Below are positions 1-7,616 of a stretch of DNA of 16,692 nt, one piece after another. Positions within the stretch are counted from its first letter, which is position 1; each line of letters starts with the position of its first letter. Position numbers and translations under genes: made by a program. Source of the DNA: a plasmid. The notes under the pieces are model-generated. The model was not told where the DNA came from. It was given only the letters and a program-made list of their open reading frames with translations, and ran no database searches. Location: sequence record NZ_CP146747.1, one strand, 5' to 3'.

Positions 1-134
1 CTTTGAGGAAGTTCTTGATGGATCAGAAAAATGTATCACAAATTTAAACAAAGACTCACTCATTTAAGAGACGCTACTATCATGAAATTTTGTTGTTGCG
101 ATAAGCAACTTCTGATACACGATTTTTAGCCATT

Positions 135-178
135 ACATCACTCGTTTTTAGAGTGATGTGTAAGTGCGCATTGCACTC
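135..178 (+). other. Candidate origin of transfer (oriT): 9-bp inverted repeat (acatcactc / gagtgatgt, 135-143 and 151-159) immediately followed by TAAGTGCGC (161-169). This matches the IR-plus-nick-region architecture of the RSF1010/R1162 and pIP501 family.
   Basis: Seen directly: perfect inverted repeat with a 7-nt loop followed by the TAAGTGCGC core. From memory, this core is the RSF1010-type nick region (nick after GTGCG). No relaxase gene is nearby in the window. Confidence 0.4.
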
Positions 179-595
179 TTTTTTTACGAAACAAGCCGAC
201 CAGCGTTTGAAACTTTTTAGTTTTTTATCATTCTATTTTAAAACGCTCTAAAACTCGATTTAAGCGACTTTAATTCGAAAGTGGCTCTATTTGTTCAAAG
301 GGAGCATTAAGAATGCTTAAACGAGCTTTTAAGTGGGTTTAAATTGATTTTGAATTGAATAGCTTGTTGTAAGTTGTAAAAAAACAAGTTAAACAAAGTA
401 TCGGTTTTCCATTTAAGGGTTGTTAGGGCTTGCCCTGAGCGTCTGTAAGACGCTTGATTGCATGATATGAGTATTTAGCTAGTCAAACAGTTAAAACAGC
501 TTATATGAGCAATTAGAGGGAATCCAATAAATTCCTAAAAGTGCTTTTGATCTTTTCTTTTAGCGAGTGAACGAAGTGAACGCTGCAAGTAAAAT

Positions 596-866: not shown

Positions 867-918
867 TGATATAATAAAAGCATAGAGAAATCGACGGCAA
901 AATCAGTTTCTCTATGCT
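867..918 (+). promoter_or_regulatory. repB promoter/operator: extended -10 (TGaTATAAT, 867-875) plus a perfect inverted repeat agcatagagaaa ... tttctctatgct (880-891 and 907-918) that overlaps the transcription start region.
   Basis: Sequence motifs read directly. Inverted-repeat operators for Rep autoregulation sit at this position in lactococcal theta replicons (established knowledge). No clean -35 hexamer is present. Confidence 0.5.
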
Positions 919-950
919 TAACCCAAATTACTCATAAGGAGCAACTTCTC

Positions 951-2108
951 ATGGAAATTATAACAAAAAAAGACCGAAACAGCAATGAAAGGACAGTGTG
1001 TTCTTTGAAAGAAATTGAGAAACGAAAAATTGTTGAACATAATGACTTGATAACATCCGTAGCAAAAATGGATAAAACGCCCTTAAAGATTTTTGAATTG
1101 GCGGTATCGTGCATTGATACGGAAAATCCACCAAAAAACAATACCATTTATCTTTCAAAAGCCGAACTCTTTTCTTTTTTTAAGGTGGACGATAGCAATA
1201 AACACAGTCGTTTTAAAGAAGCGATAGCAAAAATGCAAGAACAAGCTTTTTTTGAAGTAAGAGAAGAAAAAAATAAAGGATTTAAGTTTAGAAGAATTTT
1301 GCCAATACCAGAAGTAGCATGGACGGACTATGATGATAAAGTGCTGATTCGTTTTGACCAAGCGATTATGCCCTATTTGATTGACTTAAAACAATCTTTC
1401 ACGCAATACGCTTTATCTGACCTTGTAGAATTAAACAGCAAATACTCCATTATCCTCTACAAATGGTTATCTATGCAATATAACCAATACGAGCATTACA
1501 GTGTTAAAGGCGGACGGCGAGCGGAGCAAGTGGAAGCCTACCGCAATCCATCTATTCCAGTGAAAGAATTAAGAACAATAACAGATACTTTAAATCTTTA
1601 TGAACGTTTTACAAAATTTGAAAGTTACGTTTTGCAAAATTCGTTGAAAGAAATCAACGCTCATACACACTTTAATGTGACCTATGACAAGATTAAAAAA
1701 GGACGTTCAATTGACTCTATTGTCTTTCATATCACGAAAAAACGTCGAGCAGACGATAACAGTTATAAGCTAGAGGACAAGACATACAAGGAATCAATAG
1801 TCGAAAAAGAAGAACAAGAATTATTACTATCTGCAAGAGCAATGGAGAGTAAATATACTAAGTTATTGCTTGAAAATTTTCTTTTATCGCCTTATGAAAT
1901 GACAGATCGGTCAATCATGGTTGGCTTACAGAAAAATGTTTATCCAAAATATGATGAACTCAAAGAATTAAGGGGATTTGAGGGAGTAAAAAAACACCTG
2001 TCGTATGTTCATGATAAGCAAGAACCTTACTCAAAAAGGAACATTGCCAAGTATCTTAAAAAGGCGATTGATCAATACTTGCCAACTGTAAAACGTCAAA
2101 ATTTGTAA
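951..2108 (+). CDS. repB: Theta-type replication initiator, Rep_3 family (lactococcal RepB-like), 385 aa
   Basis: RBS AAGGAG 9 nt upstream of the ATG. N-terminal Rep_3-like segment (IVEHNDLITSVAKMDKTPLKIFELAVSCID). Located directly downstream of the iterons. Size matches lactococcal RepB. Confidence 0.85.
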   Translation: MEIITKKDRNSNERTVCSLKEIEKRKIVEHNDLITSVAKMDKTPLKIFELAVSCIDTENPPKNNTIYLSKAELFSFFKVDDSNKHSRFKEAIAKMQEQAFFEVREEKNKGFKFRRILPIPEVAWTDYDDKVLIRFDQAIMPYLIDLKQSFTQYALSDLVELNSKYSIILYKWLSMQYNQYEHYSVKGGRRAEQVEAYRNPSIPVKELRTITDTLNLYERFTKFESYVLQNSLKEINAHTHFNVTYDKIKKGRSIDSIVFHITKKRRADDNSYKLEDKTYKESIVEKEEQELLLSARAMESKYTKLLLENFLLSPYEMTDRSIMVGLQKNVYPKYDELKELRGFEGVKKHLSYVHDKQEPYSKRNIAKYLKKAIDQYLPTVKRQNL

Positions 2109-2121
2109 GGAGAGGTTTGAA

Positions 2122-2649
2122 ATGAAAGATAAAATGACTAATCAAACAATTTCAGGAGGATTTATTTTTGTAATTGGTATGGCGATGTTTACTTTGTTAG
2201 GAGGTAACTATAAAAAGCCAATACTATTTGGATCTATATATGTTATAGCTATTATTATTCAACTTTTTTTAATGAAAAAAATAAGAAAAGGCAACAGGTC
2301 TACTGAAAATAAGAAATGGGTAAATAGAGCATTTGTGTTTCTAGGAATAACATGTTGGTTTAGTATTTTGATAGGTTTAAAATTACTTGGCAACTTAAAT
2401 ATTTTATGGATATTGATATTATTTTTTGTAGGTCTGCACTTTTTATTTTTCATTCCTGCTAATGAAAATAAAAAGTGGCAAGCCCAAGTAATTTTCGTGG
2501 TTTTATTGACAGTTAACACTATTTTAGGACTATGTTTTTATTCAAACCAAATAGAAACCATTTTTATTATTGATGGTTTAATTAAAATGGGATACGGAGC
2601 TTACATGGTAAAAACCACCTATAAAGTTAATAGTGAGGATTTGTCATGA
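2122..2649 (+). CDS. Small polytopic membrane protein (175 aa, about 4-5 TM helices), translationally coupled to the next gene
   Basis: Strong RBS (AAGGAGAGG, 7-nt spacer). Highly hydrophobic segments. Its stop overlaps the next start (ATGA at 2646-2649). Function unknown. Confidence 0.55.
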   Translation: MKDKMTNQTISGGFIFVIGMAMFTLLGGNYKKPILFGSIYVIAIIIQLFLMKKIRKGNRSTENKKWVNRAFVFLGITCWFSILIGLKLLGNLNILWILILFFVGLHFLFFIPANENKKWQAQVIFVVLLTVNTILGLCFYSNQIETIFIIDGLIKMGYGAYMVKTTYKVNSEDLS

Positions 2650-3278
2650 GTGAGAATCTAAAAACGATCAAAGAGCTTGCGGATGAGTTGGGTGTATCAA
2701 AAAAGAAAATTCATTATCAAGTATCTAAATTAGATAGTAATTTGATACAAAGATTAGACGGTACTATCTATCTTAACAACGCTGCTATAAAAGTGATTAA
2801 AGGCAATATTGGATATGTCCCTAAAACTAAATTAGATAGTGTTGGTGTCCAAAATAGACAGTATTTAGATACCAAATTAGACACCGTAAATACAAGTTTA
2901 ATTGATGAAAAAAATGAACGAATCAATTATCTAAAAGAGCAAATAAAGAATAAAGATAATCAAATATCTGTTAAAGACGAACAGATAAAAAGTTTAGTAG
3001 ACGTACAAAAACAAACTCAAAATCTTTTAGACCAACAACAGCGCCTAGCCTTGCAGGATAAAAAGCTACTGGAAGAATACAAGGCAGAGAATGATAGCTT
3101 AAAAGCCCTTAAAATGCCTTCACAGGAGACAGAATTCAAACACTTAGACAATCAATATAAAGATGAAGTGAACGCCCTTAAAGAGAAGTTGGAAAATTTG
3201 CAGGAACAAATCAAAGTTCAAAAAAGGATAGAAGAACAAGAAAAACCAAGAAAATGGTGGGGACTATGGCGAAAATAG
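2646..3278 (+). CDS. HTH DNA-binding protein with a long C-terminal coiled coil (210 aa). It occupies the position of the lactococcal replication-associated OrfX/RepX-like protein.
   Basis: N-terminal HTH-like segment (IKELADELGVSKKKIHYQV). Heptad-rich, K/E/Q-rich C-terminus. Operon context with repB and overlap with hsdS. Confidence 0.65.
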   Translation: MSENLKTIKELADELGVSKKKIHYQVSKLDSNLIQRLDGTIYLNNAAIKVIKGNIGYVPKTKLDSVGVQNRQYLDTKLDTVNTSLIDEKNERINYLKEQIKNKDNQISVKDEQIKSLVDVQKQTQNLLDQQQRLALQDKKLLEEYKAENDSLKALKMPSQETEFKHLDNQYKDEVNALKEKLENLQEQIKVQKRIEEQEKPRKWWGLWRK

Positions 3279-3904
3279 ATGATTCAGTTAAAAAGAAAGT
3301 TCCAGAATTGCGATTTAAAGGATTTACGGATGATTGGGAAGAGCGTAAGTTCTCAAATTTAGCTGAAGTAAGACGGGGCTTAACATATAAGCCATCCGAT
3401 GTCCAAAAATATGGTATTAGGGTTCTTCGTTCTTCCAATATTGCAGAAGATACTTTTTTAATTAAATCGGACGATGTCTTTGTAAATAAAGAGGCAGTTA
3501 AAATTGACAAAGTGAAAAATGGGGATATTCTTATCACTTCTGCAAATGGATCTAGCCGTTTAGTTGGTAAGCATGCTTTAATTGAAGGGATTGAAAATGA
3601 TACTGTTCATGGTGGATTTATGCTTATCGCAAGGGCTGAAAAACCGGAATTTGTAAATGCTATTATGAGTTCTTCATGGTATAGTAAATTTATAAACATT
3701 TTTGTTTCTGGTGGGAATGGGGCAATTGGTAATCTAAGTAAATCAGATCTCGAAGATCAAAAGGTTTATGTTCCTAGTGAAATAGAACAAACTAAAATAG
3801 GATTATTCTTTAAGGGGCTCGACGATACTATCGCTCTTCATCAACGTAAGTTAGATTTATTGAAAGAACAGAAAAAAGGCTTTTTACAAAAGATGTTTGT
3901 TTAG
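3266..3904 (+). CDS. hsdS: Type I restriction-modification specificity subunit, half-size (one target-recognition domain), about 212 aa
   Basis: N-terminal conserved HsdS region (KKVPELRFKGFTDDWEERKFSNLAEV). C-terminal conserved repeat (LHQRKLDLLKEQKKGFLQKMF). The ORF stops right after the central/C conserved region. The probable start is the second in-frame ATG (3266) behind GGTGGGGA. The longest ORF starts at 3254. Confidence 0.8.
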   Translation: MAKIDDSVKKKVPELRFKGFTDDWEERKFSNLAEVRRGLTYKPSDVQKYGIRVLRSSNIAEDTFLIKSDDVFVNKEAVKIDKVKNGDILITSANGSSRLVGKHALIEGIENDTVHGGFMLIARAEKPEFVNAIMSSSWYSKFINIFVSGGNGAIGNLSKSDLEDQKVYVPSEIEQTKIGLFFKGLDDTIALHQRKLDLLKEQKKGFLQKMFV

Positions 3905-3947
3905 GGTCTATAATTAGATAATAACCCCGGATAAATCCCGTTAAAAT

Positions 3948-3990
3948 AGCCCCCAAGATCTAAAAGTTAGATCTTGGGGGCTATTTTTTT
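3948..3990 (+). terminator. Strong rho-independent terminator: agcccccaagatct / agatcttgggggct (14-bp stem) plus T7
   Basis: Perfect 14-bp stem, 7-nt loop and attttttt tail directly after hsdS. It ends the repB-hsdS operon. Confidence 0.85.
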
Positions 3991-4027
3991 GTTATAATGA
4001 TATAATAACTCTAAAAGGAGTAAGCAA

Positions 4028-4609
4028 ATGGATAATGTTTTTAAACCCATTAAGTATTTAAGTATCATTATGCTTGTTATTATTATCTCGGCTGTAATAA
4101 CTTATATTATCAATCCTAATTTTTCAGATACATTAAATTCTGTATCAAGTAATATTTCCAAATCGGTCTCACAGAAATCAGGATTAAATTTAGTTGTTGC
4201 TTATATTTTTAATAATGGATTTAAAGTCCCAATGGGGATGTTAATTTTTTCAATTATACCTCTCCGATTTTTATATTGGATTCAGCCACTTTTTACAGCC
4301 ATATTACCTGGAATTTTATTTGGGATAGCATTTAGATACTCAGTTGCAAAAGCTTTTATTATATTAATTTCTTCGCTACCTCATATGTTATTAGAGATAT
4401 TCGCATTTTGCTTATGGATGGTCGCTCTTGATCGTTTTAACAAATGGATTAGATACAAAATATCTAGGAAAAAACAAACAAATACTAAGTTATTTTATGA
4501 ATTCAAGTTAATATTAATCTCTTATGTTAAGTACGTTATCCCATTAATTGTTATCGCAGCTTTTACTGAAACTTATGTTGCGGATTGGATTAGTCATATA
4601 TTAAGTTAA
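4028..4609 (+). CDS. Integral membrane protein (193 aa, multiple TM helices), function unknown
   Basis: RBS AAAAGGAG 7 nt upstream. Hydrophobic profile. Followed 15 nt later by the recombinase gene, so likely co-transcribed. Confidence 0.55.
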   Translation: MDNVFKPIKYLSIIMLVIIISAVITYIINPNFSDTLNSVSSNISKSVSQKSGLNLVVAYIFNNGFKVPMGMLIFSIIPLRFLYWIQPLFTAILPGILFGIAFRYSVAKAFIILISSLPHMLLEIFAFCLWMVALDRFNKWIRYKISRKKQTNTKLFYEFKLILISYVKYVIPLIVIAAFTETYVADWISHILS

Positions 4610-4624
4610 AAAAGGAGTACTAAT

Positions 4625-5215
4625 ATGGTTCAACAAATTGTTCTTCCCATCAAAGATTCGAACGTCTTAAAAATGGTGCAAGATACGTTACTTGATAGTT
4701 TTCGGGCTGGGCGTCGTAACTACACGATCTTTCAAGTCGGTAAGGCCACACTACTCCGTGTGAGTGATGTCATGAAATTAAAAAAATCCGATGTCTTTAA
4801 CCCAGATGGTTCTATCAAAAGCACGGCTTTTATTCATGATAAAAAAACAGGAAAAGCGAATACGTTATATTTGAAACCAGTACAACAAGATTTATTAATT
4901 TATCATGATTGGCTGGTCCAACAAAATCTTAATTCTGAATGGTTATTTCCATCAACCTCTCGCACAGAGCGTCATATCACTGAAAAGCAATTTTATAAGG
5001 TCATGGCGCACGTTGGCGATCTTTTAGGCATCAACTATTTAGGAACGCATACCATGCGTAAAACAGGCGCTTACCGTGTTTATACGCAGTCGAATTATAA
5101 TATTGGTTTAGTTATGCATCTACTAAACCATTCAAGCGAAGCAATGACTTTAACTTATCTCGGTTTAGATCAAGCCAGTCGAGAAAATATGTTAGACCAA
5201 ATAGATTTTGGATAA
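4625..5215 (+). CDS. Short tyrosine site-specific recombinase (phage-integrase family catalytic domain only), 196 aa
   Basis: Catalytic signature is recognisable: Arg (LLRVSD), H-x-x-R (GTHTMRKTG) and C-terminal H...Y (LLNHSSEAMTLTYLGL). RBS AAGGAG. No N-terminal core-binding domain. Confidence 0.75.
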   Translation: MVQQIVLPIKDSNVLKMVQDTLLDSFRAGRRNYTIFQVGKATLLRVSDVMKLKKSDVFNPDGSIKSTAFIHDKKTGKANTLYLKPVQQDLLIYHDWLVQQNLNSEWLFPSTSRTERHITEKQFYKVMAHVGDLLGINYLGTHTMRKTGAYRVYTQSNYNIGLVMHLLNHSSEAMTLTYLGLDQASRENMLDQIDFG

Positions 5216-5523
5216 TATTTTTTATTTAAAAAGAGGGACAATCATTATGTTAAAAAATTACATTAACTGGCTTAAAAAAAAATAGAAATAAACCTGTTTT
5301 TAGGATGATATTTATTGTTTTAGTAGTCACATTTACCACTCTAACTATAAATTGACTTAACGTCAAATATATAATAGACTTGATAAAAGACAAAAAAGGT
5401 AAATAGTTATAAGGAAGTCTTAATTCAAAAAAGAAGTATTCAGCTGACAGTTATTATTTGTACTAAAATTATTGAGTTTTGAATCTCTTTATCTGATAAA
5501 CTTCTATGTGAGAGGTGATAAAA

Positions 5524-6360
5524 ATGATGCATCAATTTAACAAAACCATTGACTATTTAGAAAATACACTTATATCGGAAGTTGATTTTAAAAAATTTCA
5601 AAACATATCAGGTTATTCATATCCACTATTTAGTAGAATTTTTTCGATTTTATCAGAAATTACATTGGCAGAATACTTGAGAAATAGAAAACTTACACTA
5701 GCTGTAGATGATTTGTTGAATACCGATCAAAAAATTATTGATATTGCTTTGAAATATAATTATGATTCGGCTGATGCTTTTAGTTTTGCTTTTAAAAAGT
5801 TTCATGGGAATTCACCCTCAGAAGTTCGAAAAGGGAAAAACTATAAGTTATTTCCTAAAATGAAGTTAGCTTTAAAAGTAATAGGAGGAAGTCAAATGAA
5901 TATTAAAATCAAAACAAAGCCATCATTCAAAGTAGCTGGTATATTAAAAGAAAACATTGAATCTAATCAATGTCCAAGCACATGGGATCAATTATATAAT
6001 AATTATAGTTTTGATCAATTAGGGAGTTTTGGAAATGGTCAGTCATTAGGTGTCTGTTATGAGAATGAGGAAAATGATAAGATTAATTACATGGCGGGAT
6101 ATGACGTCTTAGATGATACTAAAGCTAGAAATTTAGGACTTGATATCTTAGAAGTTAAAGAGACTGAATATGCAGTAGTTCCTGTTAAAGGATCAGTCCC
6201 TGATTCCATTCATCAGGCATGGAAATTTCTACTTGAAGAATTTTTCCCAGAAAATGGCTACAAACATTCAGGCTTACCAGATTTTGAAGTATATACCGAA
6301 AATGACATTCTTGATCCCAATTATGAAATGGAGCTTTGGGTACCAATTGTAAAGCAGTAA
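5524..6360 (+). CDS. Transcriptional regulator with an N-terminal AraC/XylS-type HTH and a C-terminal GyrI-like effector-binding domain (Rob/MarA-like architecture)
   Basis: N-terminal motif (DIALKYNYDSADAFSFAFKKFHGNSPSEVRK) is typical of the AraC HTH second helix. About 160 aa of C-terminus has GyrI-like character. RBS GAGAGGTGA. The longest ORF starts with GTG at 5515. Confidence 0.7.
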   Translation: MMHQFNKTIDYLENTLISEVDFKKFQNISGYSYPLFSRIFSILSEITLAEYLRNRKLTLAVDDLLNTDQKIIDIALKYNYDSADAFSFAFKKFHGNSPSEVRKGKNYKLFPKMKLALKVIGGSQMNIKIKTKPSFKVAGILKENIESNQCPSTWDQLYNNYSFDQLGSFGNGQSLGVCYENEENDKINYMAGYDVLDDTKARNLGLDILEVKETEYAVVPVKGSVPDSIHQAWKFLLEEFFPENGYKHSGLPDFEVYTENDILDPNYEMELWVPIVKQ

Positions 6361-6371
6361 ATTATTAAAAC

Positions 6372-6407
6372 AAAATGTCCTTCAGAAATATTTCTGAAGG
6401 ACATTTT
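6372..6407. terminator. Perfectly palindromic hairpin (aaaatgtccttcagaaata / tatttctgaaggacatttt); a bidirectional terminator
   Basis: 36-bp perfect palindrome flanked by A/T runs, immediately after the regulator gene. Confidence 0.7.
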
Positions 6408-6650
6408 GTTATTCTATCTCTAGTCTCATATAATCAATTGATTGATATTTATTTTGTCTATTTAAAAAGGCTTTAGGGTTTTCACCATATTTGATGAAAT
6501 TGTATTTTTTATACAATGATATTGCACTAGTATTATTGGACACTACTTGAAGTTCTAATTGTTTGTATTGGGCTTTTTTACCCAACTCTATTTGATGCTA
6601 TCCTTAAATCTTAGAGTCACTATTGTATAATTTAGACAAAGGATAAAAAC

Positions 6651-6783
6651 ATGCAAAAACGCTACTCACAAGAATTTAAAGACACCCTTCTCGACTTCTA
6701 TCATTCTGGGCAATCCGTCACACAGCTTTCTAAAGAATACGGCGTGGCTATCCAACAAATCACTCCATTAAATTTAATTCGAT
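6651..6783 (+). pseudogene. N-terminal remnant (43 codons) of an IS3-family transposase OrfA
   Basis: Translation MQKRYSQEFKDTLLDFYHSGQSVTQLSKEYGVA... is the typical N-terminal HTH of IS3/IS150-group OrfA. The ORF ends abruptly and the frame is fused to unrelated sequence. A possible IS left end (TGGACACTAC...) lies near 6536. Confidence 0.5.
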
Positions 6784-7258
6784 GACATACTCAAGTATCG
6801 CTGATAAACCAGTGATTAATACCGCTAAAGATTCCGACACTAGTGTGACCGGAACAGGTACACCTGGCAATAGCGTTACAGTTTATGACGCATCGGGCAA
6901 AAAACTAGGTACCGCAACTGTTAAGGAAGACGGTAAGTGGGATCTTCCGGTAGAACAAGGTACATTAAAAGCTGGTGAAAAACTTACTGCTACGCAAAAA
7001 GCACCAGGTAGTAACCGAGATAGTGAACCAGCGACTGGTGTTGTTACTAAAGACAATCAAACATTACCGGGTAAAGAGAATACTCAAAACGGTACTAAGA
7101 CACCAGCAGCGAGTCAAGATAAAATACCTGATTCTGTACTAAACTTACCACAAACATCTGAAAAGCCTTCGAATTCAATATATTTAGGATTCATGTTACT
7201 AGTAGGCGCATTGGGATCTTTGTTGTTCCGAGTAAAAAAAATAAGAAGTAATTTGTAA
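6782..7258 (+). pseudogene. C-terminal fragment of a cell-wall-anchored surface protein: Ig-like repeat domain plus sorting signal LPQTSE, hydrophobic segment and RVKKIRSNL tail
   Basis: Sorting signal LPQTSEKPSNSIYLGFMLLVGALGSLLFRVKKIRSNL sits at the extreme C-terminus. There is no signal peptide or N-terminus; the reading frame opens only 17 codons upstream of the ATG (stop at 6731-6733), inside the IS3 remnant. LPQTxE is the sortase motif variant typical of Lactobacillus plantarum-group proteins. Confidence 0.55.
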
Positions 7259-7383
7259 ATGACGAAGATAATTCTAATACTATTTTATAAATTGCAAAAA
7301 GTAATTGATTAGCAAAAATATTTTTTTTCAAATAAAATAGATAAATCAGTGTAAAAATCGACAAATAAAAGTCTTGCATTTTC

Positions 7384-7412
7384 TATAGAATTTATATATA
7401 GTTAAGTTGATT
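7384..7412 (+). promoter_or_regulatory. Candidate sigma-A promoter for the pilus operon (-35 TTGCAT 7384-7389; -10 TATAGT 7407-7412; 17-bp spacer)
   Basis: Hexamers read directly. Lies about 200 bp upstream of the pilus-operon start. Alternative TATATA -10 registers exist, so assignment is uncertain. Confidence 0.3.
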
Positions 7413-7453
7413 AGATGGGTAGTTACTGATGAAACAGGCTATACCTTGAAATG

Positions 7454-7499
7454 TACTCGATTTATCGAGTATTATGATATAAATCTAGATGATATAAAT
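7454..7499. promoter_or_regulatory. Candidate operator cluster: 18-bp perfect palindrome tactcgat-tt-atcgagta (7454-7471) plus two copies of atgatataaat (7474-7484 and 7489-7499)
   Basis: Seen directly, between the candidate promoter and the start of the pilus operon. No regulator is assigned. Confidence 0.3.
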
Positions 7500-7616
7500 T
7501 AAAAGGTTGAGCGTAATAATTGTTTTGAGTTTCCAACCGAATTAAGCTGTTTTCAGATCTTTGATGGGTGTCAAGATTTGCTTACATATATATTTTAAGA
7601 GAAAGCGGGACGATAT

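Follow-up and report, generated by a model that had tools for sequence, protein, structure and literature searches.

The oriT block

Positions 135-178 of a 16,692-nt plasmid sequence (record NZ_CP146747.1; the whole stretch analysed is called the window below) hold an inverted repeat (IR) and, immediately behind it, a motif of the kind found at plasmid origins of transfer (oriT). On the + strand the letters read ACATCACTC gttttta GAGTGATGT G TAAGTGCGC ATTGCACTC, in which two 9-nt arms (135-143 and 151-159), 100% complementary in the repeat search and separated by a 7-nt loop, are followed by a G and TAAGTGCGCATTG (161-173). A first-pass annotation of this DNA had read repeat and motif as an RSF1010/pIP501-type oriT with no relaxase gene nearby. 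That description of 135-178 is exact, and the conserved block proves to be larger (88-174), with a second hairpin and a conserved box. In this study I argue that this block is probably an orphan oriT of the MOBQ class, of the subtype represented by plasmid pMRC01, which allows mobilisation by a relaxase acting in trans.

The conserved block, oriT-B, measures about 87 bp (88-174, + strand), with its limits set by homology: the BLAST matches to pGL4 and to copy b of pUC11E cover window 88-173 at 79%, and 88-174 can be aligned to the relaxase-linked oriTs of pMRC01, pLC71A, and Leuconostoc and Lactobacillaceae plasmids. The elements keep one order throughout the family. The distal hairpin IR1 (GTTGC gataa GCAAC, 95-109, arms 95-99 and 105-109), identified by single-stranded DNA folding and covariation, comes first and runs into the box CTTCTGATACA (109-119), which is nearly invariant in the family alignment (its sole variation is G/A at one position) and is a candidate site for an accessory protein. 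After a spacer follows the nick-proximal hairpin IR2 (135-159), found by repeat search and single-stranded folding alike, and then the nick core GTAAGTGCGCATTG (160-173), invariant in the family. On the + strand the predicted nick separates G168 from C169, a placement for which I assume that RSF1010 and pSK41 are valid analogies. From the end of IR2 (159) to this predicted nick there are 9 nt, in keeping with the 8-9 nt from the hairpin base at MOBQ sites.

The window has one further structure here, a small terminator-like hairpin (AGTGC gcatt GCACT, followed by a run of seven T; 163-185, + strand) that was found by terminator scan and folding and overlaps the nick core. This hairpin and its T run are restricted to oriTs with the window-type right half; the relaxase-linked copies instead continue as ...CATTGACCTCGTTTCACTCGG. 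Folded as single-stranded DNA, 92-190 forms three hairpins (95-109, 135-159 and 163-177) at -16.8 kcal/mol (z = -3.9), an energy that none of 200 shuffled sequences matched.

Chance does not account for the arrangement of IR2 and core. TAAGTGCGC, which is present once, is expected 0.07 times per window in dinucleotide-preserving shuffles, and a shuffled window holds about 1.0 perfect IR of at least 9 bp with a loop of 3-10 nt; arithmetic from both estimates gives roughly 2e-5 hairpins per window that end 1 nt before TAAGTGCGC. Conservation is a stronger argument than these estimates.

Conservation of structure and core

IR2 and core together are present in 330 plasmid records of PLSDB, 67 of which match window 100-215 with at least 99% identity. 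The weaker matches span only window ~105-182 and come from plasmids of Lactococcus, Leuconostoc, Lactiplantibacillus, Latilactobacillus, Pediococcus, Weissella and Enterococcus. The same combination occurs in 34 metagenome contigs, every one of them an orphan. In species-representative genomes the 14-mer core hit at least 120 loci, mostly by chance, and among the matches listed there are 30 Lactobacillales loci with the anatomy of oriT-B.

Because the IR2 loop varies from 3 to 11 nt and so displaces the left arm in the MAFFT alignment, covariation of IR2 cannot validly be counted there, and IR2 was instead assessed by an IR search in each sequence together with a chance-site control. Among the matches listed, a perfect IR2 of 7-9 bp abuts the core in 27 of the 30 family loci, with 10 distinct arm sequences, and an IR of at least 7 bp lies beside the 14-mer in none of its 87 chance occurrences in unrelated genomes. 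For IR1, 98.2% of cells are paired over 28 family members, both-sided changes are seen in four of the six pairs, and the covariation score exceeds that of all 500 shuffles and all slid controls. The core TAAGTGCGCATTG is invariant across all family members. By this comparison both hairpins are under structural selection, their pairing being kept by compensatory changes. Such a pattern would be expected for a relaxase substrate, in which the hairpin is read largely by shape and the single-stranded nick region by sequence.

Relaxase-linked relatives and class

In pLC71A, pMRC01 and one Leuconostoc plasmid a gene annotated as a MobQ family relaxase starts ~50 bp downstream of the matching block, and the block reads away from this gene. 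Among the matches listed in the genome scan, the MobQ gene of 19 of the 30 loci begins ~110 bp away from the core and is encoded on the opposite strand, and on the other side of the core such loci carry conserved orf94-like and DUF3847 open reading frames (ORFs). The pMRC01 relaxase matches PF03389 MobA_MobL (2.9e-83) and NES_C_h, the C-terminal helical domain of NES, and its relaxase domain finds in the PDB both NES (4HT4, 9e-24) and the MobA of R1162 (2NS6, 4e-14). Judged by these domains, the linked relaxase is of the MOBQ class. The class proposed in the first-pass annotation is thereby borne out, since homologues of the block adjoin MobA/MobL relaxase genes.

The nick-region consensus of MOBQ is TAAGTGCGCCCT, with the 12 core bases NWACCNNTAAGTGCGCCCTYNN (PMC3832669). 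The first nine of these are matched 9/9 by TAAGTGCGC, whereas the next three are ATT and not CCT. The match to the core of the pMRC01 subtype, TAAGTGCGCATTG, is exact (13/13). On this alignment, ATT in place of CCT defines a pMRC01 subtype, set apart from the RSF1010/pIP501/pUC11B subtype TAAGTGCGCCCT.

The nearest relatives are the oriTs of pMRC01 and of the pLC71A/pAF22 type, which share with the window IR1, the CTTCTGATAC box, IR2 and GTAAGTGCGCATTG in this order, as well as the host genus. Right arm and core (GAGTGATGTGTAAGTGCGCATTG) are identical to pMRC01 at 22 of 23 positions, with one base different, and the IR2 arms differ from those of pLC71A by two fully compensated transitions. In contrast to the window plasmid, pMRC01 and pLC71A encode the relaxase and accessory ORFs in cis, and their sequence 3' of ...CATTG is unrelated to that of the window. 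The experimentally defined oriT of pUC11B (PMC11097999) and its copy in pUC11E also have a hairpin directly followed by TAAGTGCGC, but pUC11B reads TAAGTGCGCCCTT (the CCCT subtype) behind another hairpin, TATACCATG, and its relaxase domain is ~50% identical to that of pMRC01. In pSK41/pGO1 the relaxase is of the NES family, to which the PDB match above points as well, but the host genus is another and the core is of the CCCT subtype. Finally, the RSF1010/R1162 oriT has an IR and, after 8-9 nt, the nick in TAAGTGCG|C, and the relaxase domains are homologous; it differs in CCCT 3' of the nick, where the window has CATT, while the window type has Gram-positive hosts and an extra distal hairpin and conserved box.

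No ORF of the plasmid encodes a relaxase or Mob domain (Pfam, all ORFs of at least 60 aa, whole circle). Nor did tblastn of the circularised window with three MobQ relaxases, their two accessory ORFs (orf94 and orf88) and one MobC reveal remnants of relaxase or accessory genes below E = 2. Position 16692 joins position 1, as colinearity with pIL1 (5830-5850) and pS7b indicates, and the window is on this evidence a complete circular theta plasmid. As this circle holds neither a relaxase nor an accessory mobilisation gene, the oriT is an orphan with respect to the whole replicon and not just to its neighbourhood, which widens the original observation that no relaxase is encoded nearby.

The likely helper

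The mechanism of mobilisation and this oriT family are already known, and identical copies lie in the long-known plasmids pNZ4000, pIL1 and pS7b. According to a statement in PMC11097999, which cites Hickey 2001, the cloned oriT of pMRC01 gives mobilisation by pMRC01. The non-conjugative plasmid pUC11E, which lacks a relaxase, provides a lactococcal precedent, as it was mobilised experimentally via an oriT identical to that of pUC11B (Ortiz Charneco et al. 2024, PMC11097999). Related cases of mobilisation by a relaxase in trans are pS7a/b, plasmids that are 94% identical to window 16100..975 and are reported to be mobilised by the helper pS80 (PMC4652767), and the staphylococcal plasmids that bear pSK41- and pWBG749-type oriT mimics. 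Of the oriTs of this class, pUC11E contains three copies, the pUC11B-identical one at 3703-3745 and two of the CATTG type at 4031 and 7012. pUC11B did not mobilise pUC11E constructs from which just 3579-3773 or 3579-3935 had been deleted (below 1e-5 %; PMC11097999). These deletions remove the CCCTT-type copy and retain both CATTG-type copies, and therefore the pUC11B relaxase does not use CATTG-type sites.

When Lactococcus relaxases of this family were compared with the pMRC01 relaxase domain by tblastn, only two groups were found, the pMRC01 type (at least 95%) and the pUC11B type (~50%). With pUC11B excluded, this leaves a relaxase of the pMRC01 type, from a co-resident conjugative plasmid, as the likely helper. 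In 24 Lactococcus plasmid records a pMRC01-type oriT lies beside mobQ, and 15 of these are typed as conjugative. Mobilisation in trans by a MOBQ relaxase, as first suggested, is still the best explanation of the motif, but stated for the class as a whole it was too broad, as the site is of the pMRC01 subtype and pUC11B, also MOBQ, is inactive on the CATTG copies.

Mobilisation might then proceed as follows. A co-resident pMRC01-like conjugative plasmid, presumably the helper, would supply a relaxase of the MobA/MobL-NES type, probably with small accessory proteins. This relaxase would bind the hairpin IR2 (135-159) and the neighbouring single-stranded core, cut the + strand within TAAGTGCG|C (168|169) and stay covalently attached to the 5' end. 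The strand would be piloted through the type IV secretion system of the helper, so that the replication origin and repB (169 onwards) would enter the recipient first, and once hairpin and core arrived again the relaxase would rejoin the strand.

A companion oriT across the circular junction

The window holds a second orphan oriT, oriT-A, of the CTTG|CA type (16525-16578, + strand). It consists of a 13-bp IR (16525-16537/16550-16562) with TGATAG and CTTGCA (16569-16574) behind it, so that the IR is followed by TGATAGCTTGCAGTAT, and it lies on the same strand 288 bp upstream of the oriT-B nick across the circular junction. The first-pass annotation had described oriT-B without it. A 13-bp IR with TGATAGCTTG|CA is not present within 135-178 and was found only at 16525-16578. 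The CTTG|CA oriTs of pS7a/b, pCD4 and pNZ4000 share with oriT-B the non-coding region upstream of repB, and in the window both are orphans. They are unlike it in sequence, being built of a 13-bp IR and TGATAGCTTG|CA, and in their cognate relaxase, which is of the PF03432/MOBP type and works with a NikA/MobC accessory protein. In pUC11D and pNZ4000 the oriT-A sequence stands directly upstream of mobC and a PF03432 relaxase gene.

Both types of oriT occur ~290 bp apart upstream of a repB in pNZ4000, pIL1, pGL4, pS7b and pUC11E. Such a pair would give a replicon access to two unrelated mobilisation systems. The sequence of oriT-A is identical to the oriT listed in oriTDB for pS7a/b, for which the entry gives nic CTTG|CA and an oriT at 415-870 of pS7b (PMC7755788); the TAAGTGCGC motif lies at 985 in pS7b, outside these limits. 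I considered whether the published 'oriT' of pGL3/pGL4 and pCD4 might be oriT-B, and rejected this, as the published element is the CTTG|CA one ~290 bp upstream; it is this element that the paper on pGL3/pGL4 of Lactococcus garvieae annotated. With only the CTTG|CA site given in that paper and in the oriTDB entry for pS7a/b, oriT-B seems to be under-annotated.

The alignment to known oriTs, proposed at the outset with pNZ4000 among the references, gave the match to pMRC01 described above, but the relaxase-linked oriT of pNZ4000 is of the CTTG|CA type; yet this plasmid does hold, upstream of one repB, an orphan copy in which IR2 and core are exactly those of the window. A pUC11B-type oriT, truncated immediately behind TAAGTGCGCC by the terminal repeat of an IS6 element (GGTTCTGTTGCAAAGT), and this exact copy lie at 39483-39545 (+) and 11040 (-) of pNZ4000. 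Across the CTTG|CA oriT of many related plasmids (pS7b, pJM3C, pNZ4000), RefSeq annotates a small ORF as 'cytochrome B'. This annotation is probably spurious; in the window, ~16285-16611 has no + strand ORF of at least 60 aa.

Exchange of halves at the nick core

The left half of the window's oriT-B (95-100% identity) is joined to at least four unrelated right halves in other plasmids and contigs, namely the window type, the type of pPECL-1 and Enterococcus durans, the pGL4 type and the relaxase-linked type. In the reverse case, copy a of pUC11E has the window right half at 95% behind an unrelated left half. The switch between left and right always falls within 155-174. This reassortment of halves at the core suggests past relaxase activity, since joints of just this kind would arise if transfer began at one oriT and ended at another. 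Alternatively, recombination by short homology may have taken place in the shared core of 13-23 bp.

A tentative and rather doubtful extension is that the nick core might be a hotspot of relaxase-driven recombination that re-pairs the pCI305-type replication cassette with new flanks, and that tandem oriTs might be a selected 'dual-key' module, open to two relaxase families of lactic acid bacteria. The pairing of one left half with four or more unrelated right halves, and the converse case, would follow from such a hotspot.

Two observations concern the same core. In one metagenome contig (~1273-1330) CATTGCA is repeated three times after the nick core (GCGCATTGCACATTGCACATTGCACTC), which may be a scar of slippage or of re-ligation at the nick. 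In pPECL-1 (850-913) and at the E. durans locus (~437-520) two oppositely oriented oriT cores are separated by ~55 bp and differ in their hairpins; pPECL-1 is a 1.8-kb plasmid without mob genes.

Alternative explanations

Several points weigh against a functional oriT-B. Specificity can be tight, as the behaviour of pUC11B illustrates. A relaxase-linked copy with the arms ACATCACTC/GAGTGATGT is absent from the 30 genome loci (among the matches listed) and from the 34 metagenome contigs, nor were the same arms relaxase-linked in the sampled plasmid records that encode this relaxase family (45/1,307). The 3' side of the core is unlike that of the relaxase-linked copies, and the small hairpin covers the predicted nick, so that folding at this position could hinder or modulate cleavage. 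In oriTDB the mobilisation determinant of pS7a/b is the CTTG|CA oriT and not oriT-B, and the mobilisation of these plasmids by pS80 was not assigned to the TAAGTGCGC motif. A parallel is known from staphylococci, in which the pSK41-like mimics, with an identical core and a different hairpin, were nicked in vitro and not mobilised by pSK41 (PMC4993578). Like the window's oriT, these mimics keep the core of a conjugative plasmid behind a different hairpin, reside on relaxase-less plasmids and are often accompanied by a second mimic type. Given this parallel, and as no relaxase-linked copy with the exact arms was found, I only infer that the window variant is processed efficiently.

Taken to its end, this line of evidence would make oriT-B a non-functional relic, an oriT captured once from a mobQ plasmid and since kept only by linkage to the very successful pCI305-type replicon cassette, used by no extant relaxase. 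The missing cognate relaxase with identical arms, the CATTG-type copies unused by pUC11B, the staphylococcal mimics unmobilised in vivo, the replaced native 3' flank, and the location of the annotated and functional oriT of pS7a/b, within the homologous region, at the neighbouring CTTG|CA site would all fit. However, both hairpins remain fully paired, the 13-nt core does not vary among the 330 plasmid records and 34 metagenome contigs, and the differences between the arms and those of pLC71A are fully compensated. Moreover, the several different flanks with their joints at the core point to repeated relaxase-type events and not to a single ancient capture. I therefore regard a relic, although it is the main rival, as unlikely.

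Far less probable is that the hairpins are a transcription signal, in which 135-159 and 163-177 with the T run 179-185 would form an intrinsic terminator, either the 3' end of a small RNA or an insulator of the replication origin against read-through, and any likeness to an oriT would be secondary. The terminator scan does flag 153-174 and 163-177 on the + strand, each with a T run behind it, a second terminator-like hairpin lies at 596-616, and 1-630 contains no ORF of at least 60 aa (all are of at most 32 aa). However, both the small hairpin and its T run are confined to the window-type right half, whereas the family as a whole keeps IR1, box, IR2 and core, which adjoin relaxase genes. A terminator role of 163-185 could coexist with an oriT, but it would leave the motif unexplained.

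The proposal in the first-pass annotation that 1-630 may produce a small RNA likewise finds no support. Rfam gives no match in 1-840 at E <= 1 (within 1-1000 only the ctRNA at 867-951), and a promoter-like site is lacking in 1-847, where only terminator-like hairpins were found. The region is a mosaic of differently distributed modules: 88-174 is the oriT, 175-332 goes with the window-type right half, and 396-640 is common to more than 700 Enterococcus plasmid records and to small Rep_3 plasmids of Lactobacillaceae, always upstream of the replication origin. The hairpin at 596-616 and its T run are almost invariant, and their module (545-640) is found upstream of the iterons in unrelated Rep_3 replicons; in pF03-5, a 1.9-kb Rep_3 plasmid, a hairpin of this type lies ~150 bp upstream of the iterons, as in the window. 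Because of this conservation with Rep_3 iterons, the 596-616 hairpin is part of the replicon, perhaps as an insulator of the origin, and not the end of a 600-nt transcription unit. For the 396-640 module, a role as an insulating terminator or as a site of priming is conceivable. A canonical ssoA in 396-640 was considered and dropped, because no RSB sequence matched at up to three mismatches, folding was weak (z only -1.95 and -2.7) and the module is common to Rep_3 theta replicons.

Some details of this region stand by themselves. The sequence of 555-626 is nearly invariant (TTTTAGCGAGTGAACGAAGTGAACGCTGCAAGTAAAATGTGAGCGTGGTTTTCGCTCACTCCTTTTT), and in Enterococcus the pairing of a hairpin at 439-455 is kept via a compensated change. 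Read on the minus strand (565-625), the terminator-like hairpin gives an IR (GTGAGCG..CGCTCAC), ATTTTA and CTTGCAG with the 6-nt spacing of the CTTG|CA oriT, which may be a coincidence, as CTTGCAG occurs five times in the window.

A nick site for rolling-circle replication (double-strand or single-strand origin), as the matches on very small plasmids without mob genes might suggest (pPECL-1 with 1,815 bp; lactococcal and lactobacillal plasmids of 2-3 kb), is hardly credible for a theta replicon with a Rep_3 initiator, 22-bp iterons and a ctRNA, where the motif fits the MOBQ oriT consensus at TAAGTGCGC and is tightly linked to MobA/MobL relaxases and not to Rep genes, and where the RSB sequence of ssoA is absent from the window.

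The plasmid and the meaning of an orphan oriT

The replicon is of the pCI305 type and replicates by the theta mode. Its initiator gene repB (951-2108) is recognised by a Rep_3/L_lactis_RepB_C domain match. The repeat search shows about four 22-bp iterons (763-850) just upstream of ctRNA_pND324, the antisense regulator of repB (867-951, minus strand; Rfam, 86.9 bits); iterons and this ctRNA are standard for pCI305-type replicons. A near-identical lactococcal replicon and oriT sequence also turns up in a 5.5-kb 'Dactylosporangium' contig and in CP044372.1 (5.7 kb, labelled 'Klebsiella pneumoniae'), where contamination or mislabelling is most likely the cause.

The remaining coding content comprises a DUF6609 protein, a hypothetical protein, an orphan HsdS, a SpoIIM-like protein, a tyrosine recombinase, an AraC/GyrI regulator and a sortase-dependent pilus cluster (7617-15348) with a VWA-domain tip pilin, a major pilin and two class C sortases, beside an IS6 transposase (15415-16098). 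The region of the pilus cluster is 99.5% identical to an L. garvieae plasmid and 98.8% identical to a plasmid from Streptococcus iniae.

If oriT-B is functional, a block of 87 bp makes this 16.7-kb plasmid, which bears a pilus cluster but lacks transfer genes, transferable wherever it resides beside a pMRC01-like conjugative plasmid. The same block is found on hundreds of lactococcal and enterococcal plasmids, and mobility predictions that rely on relaxase genes would then underestimate the number of movable plasmids in dairy and clinical Lactococcus and Enterococcus. Under the same condition, the block could be used for food-grade plasmid delivery.

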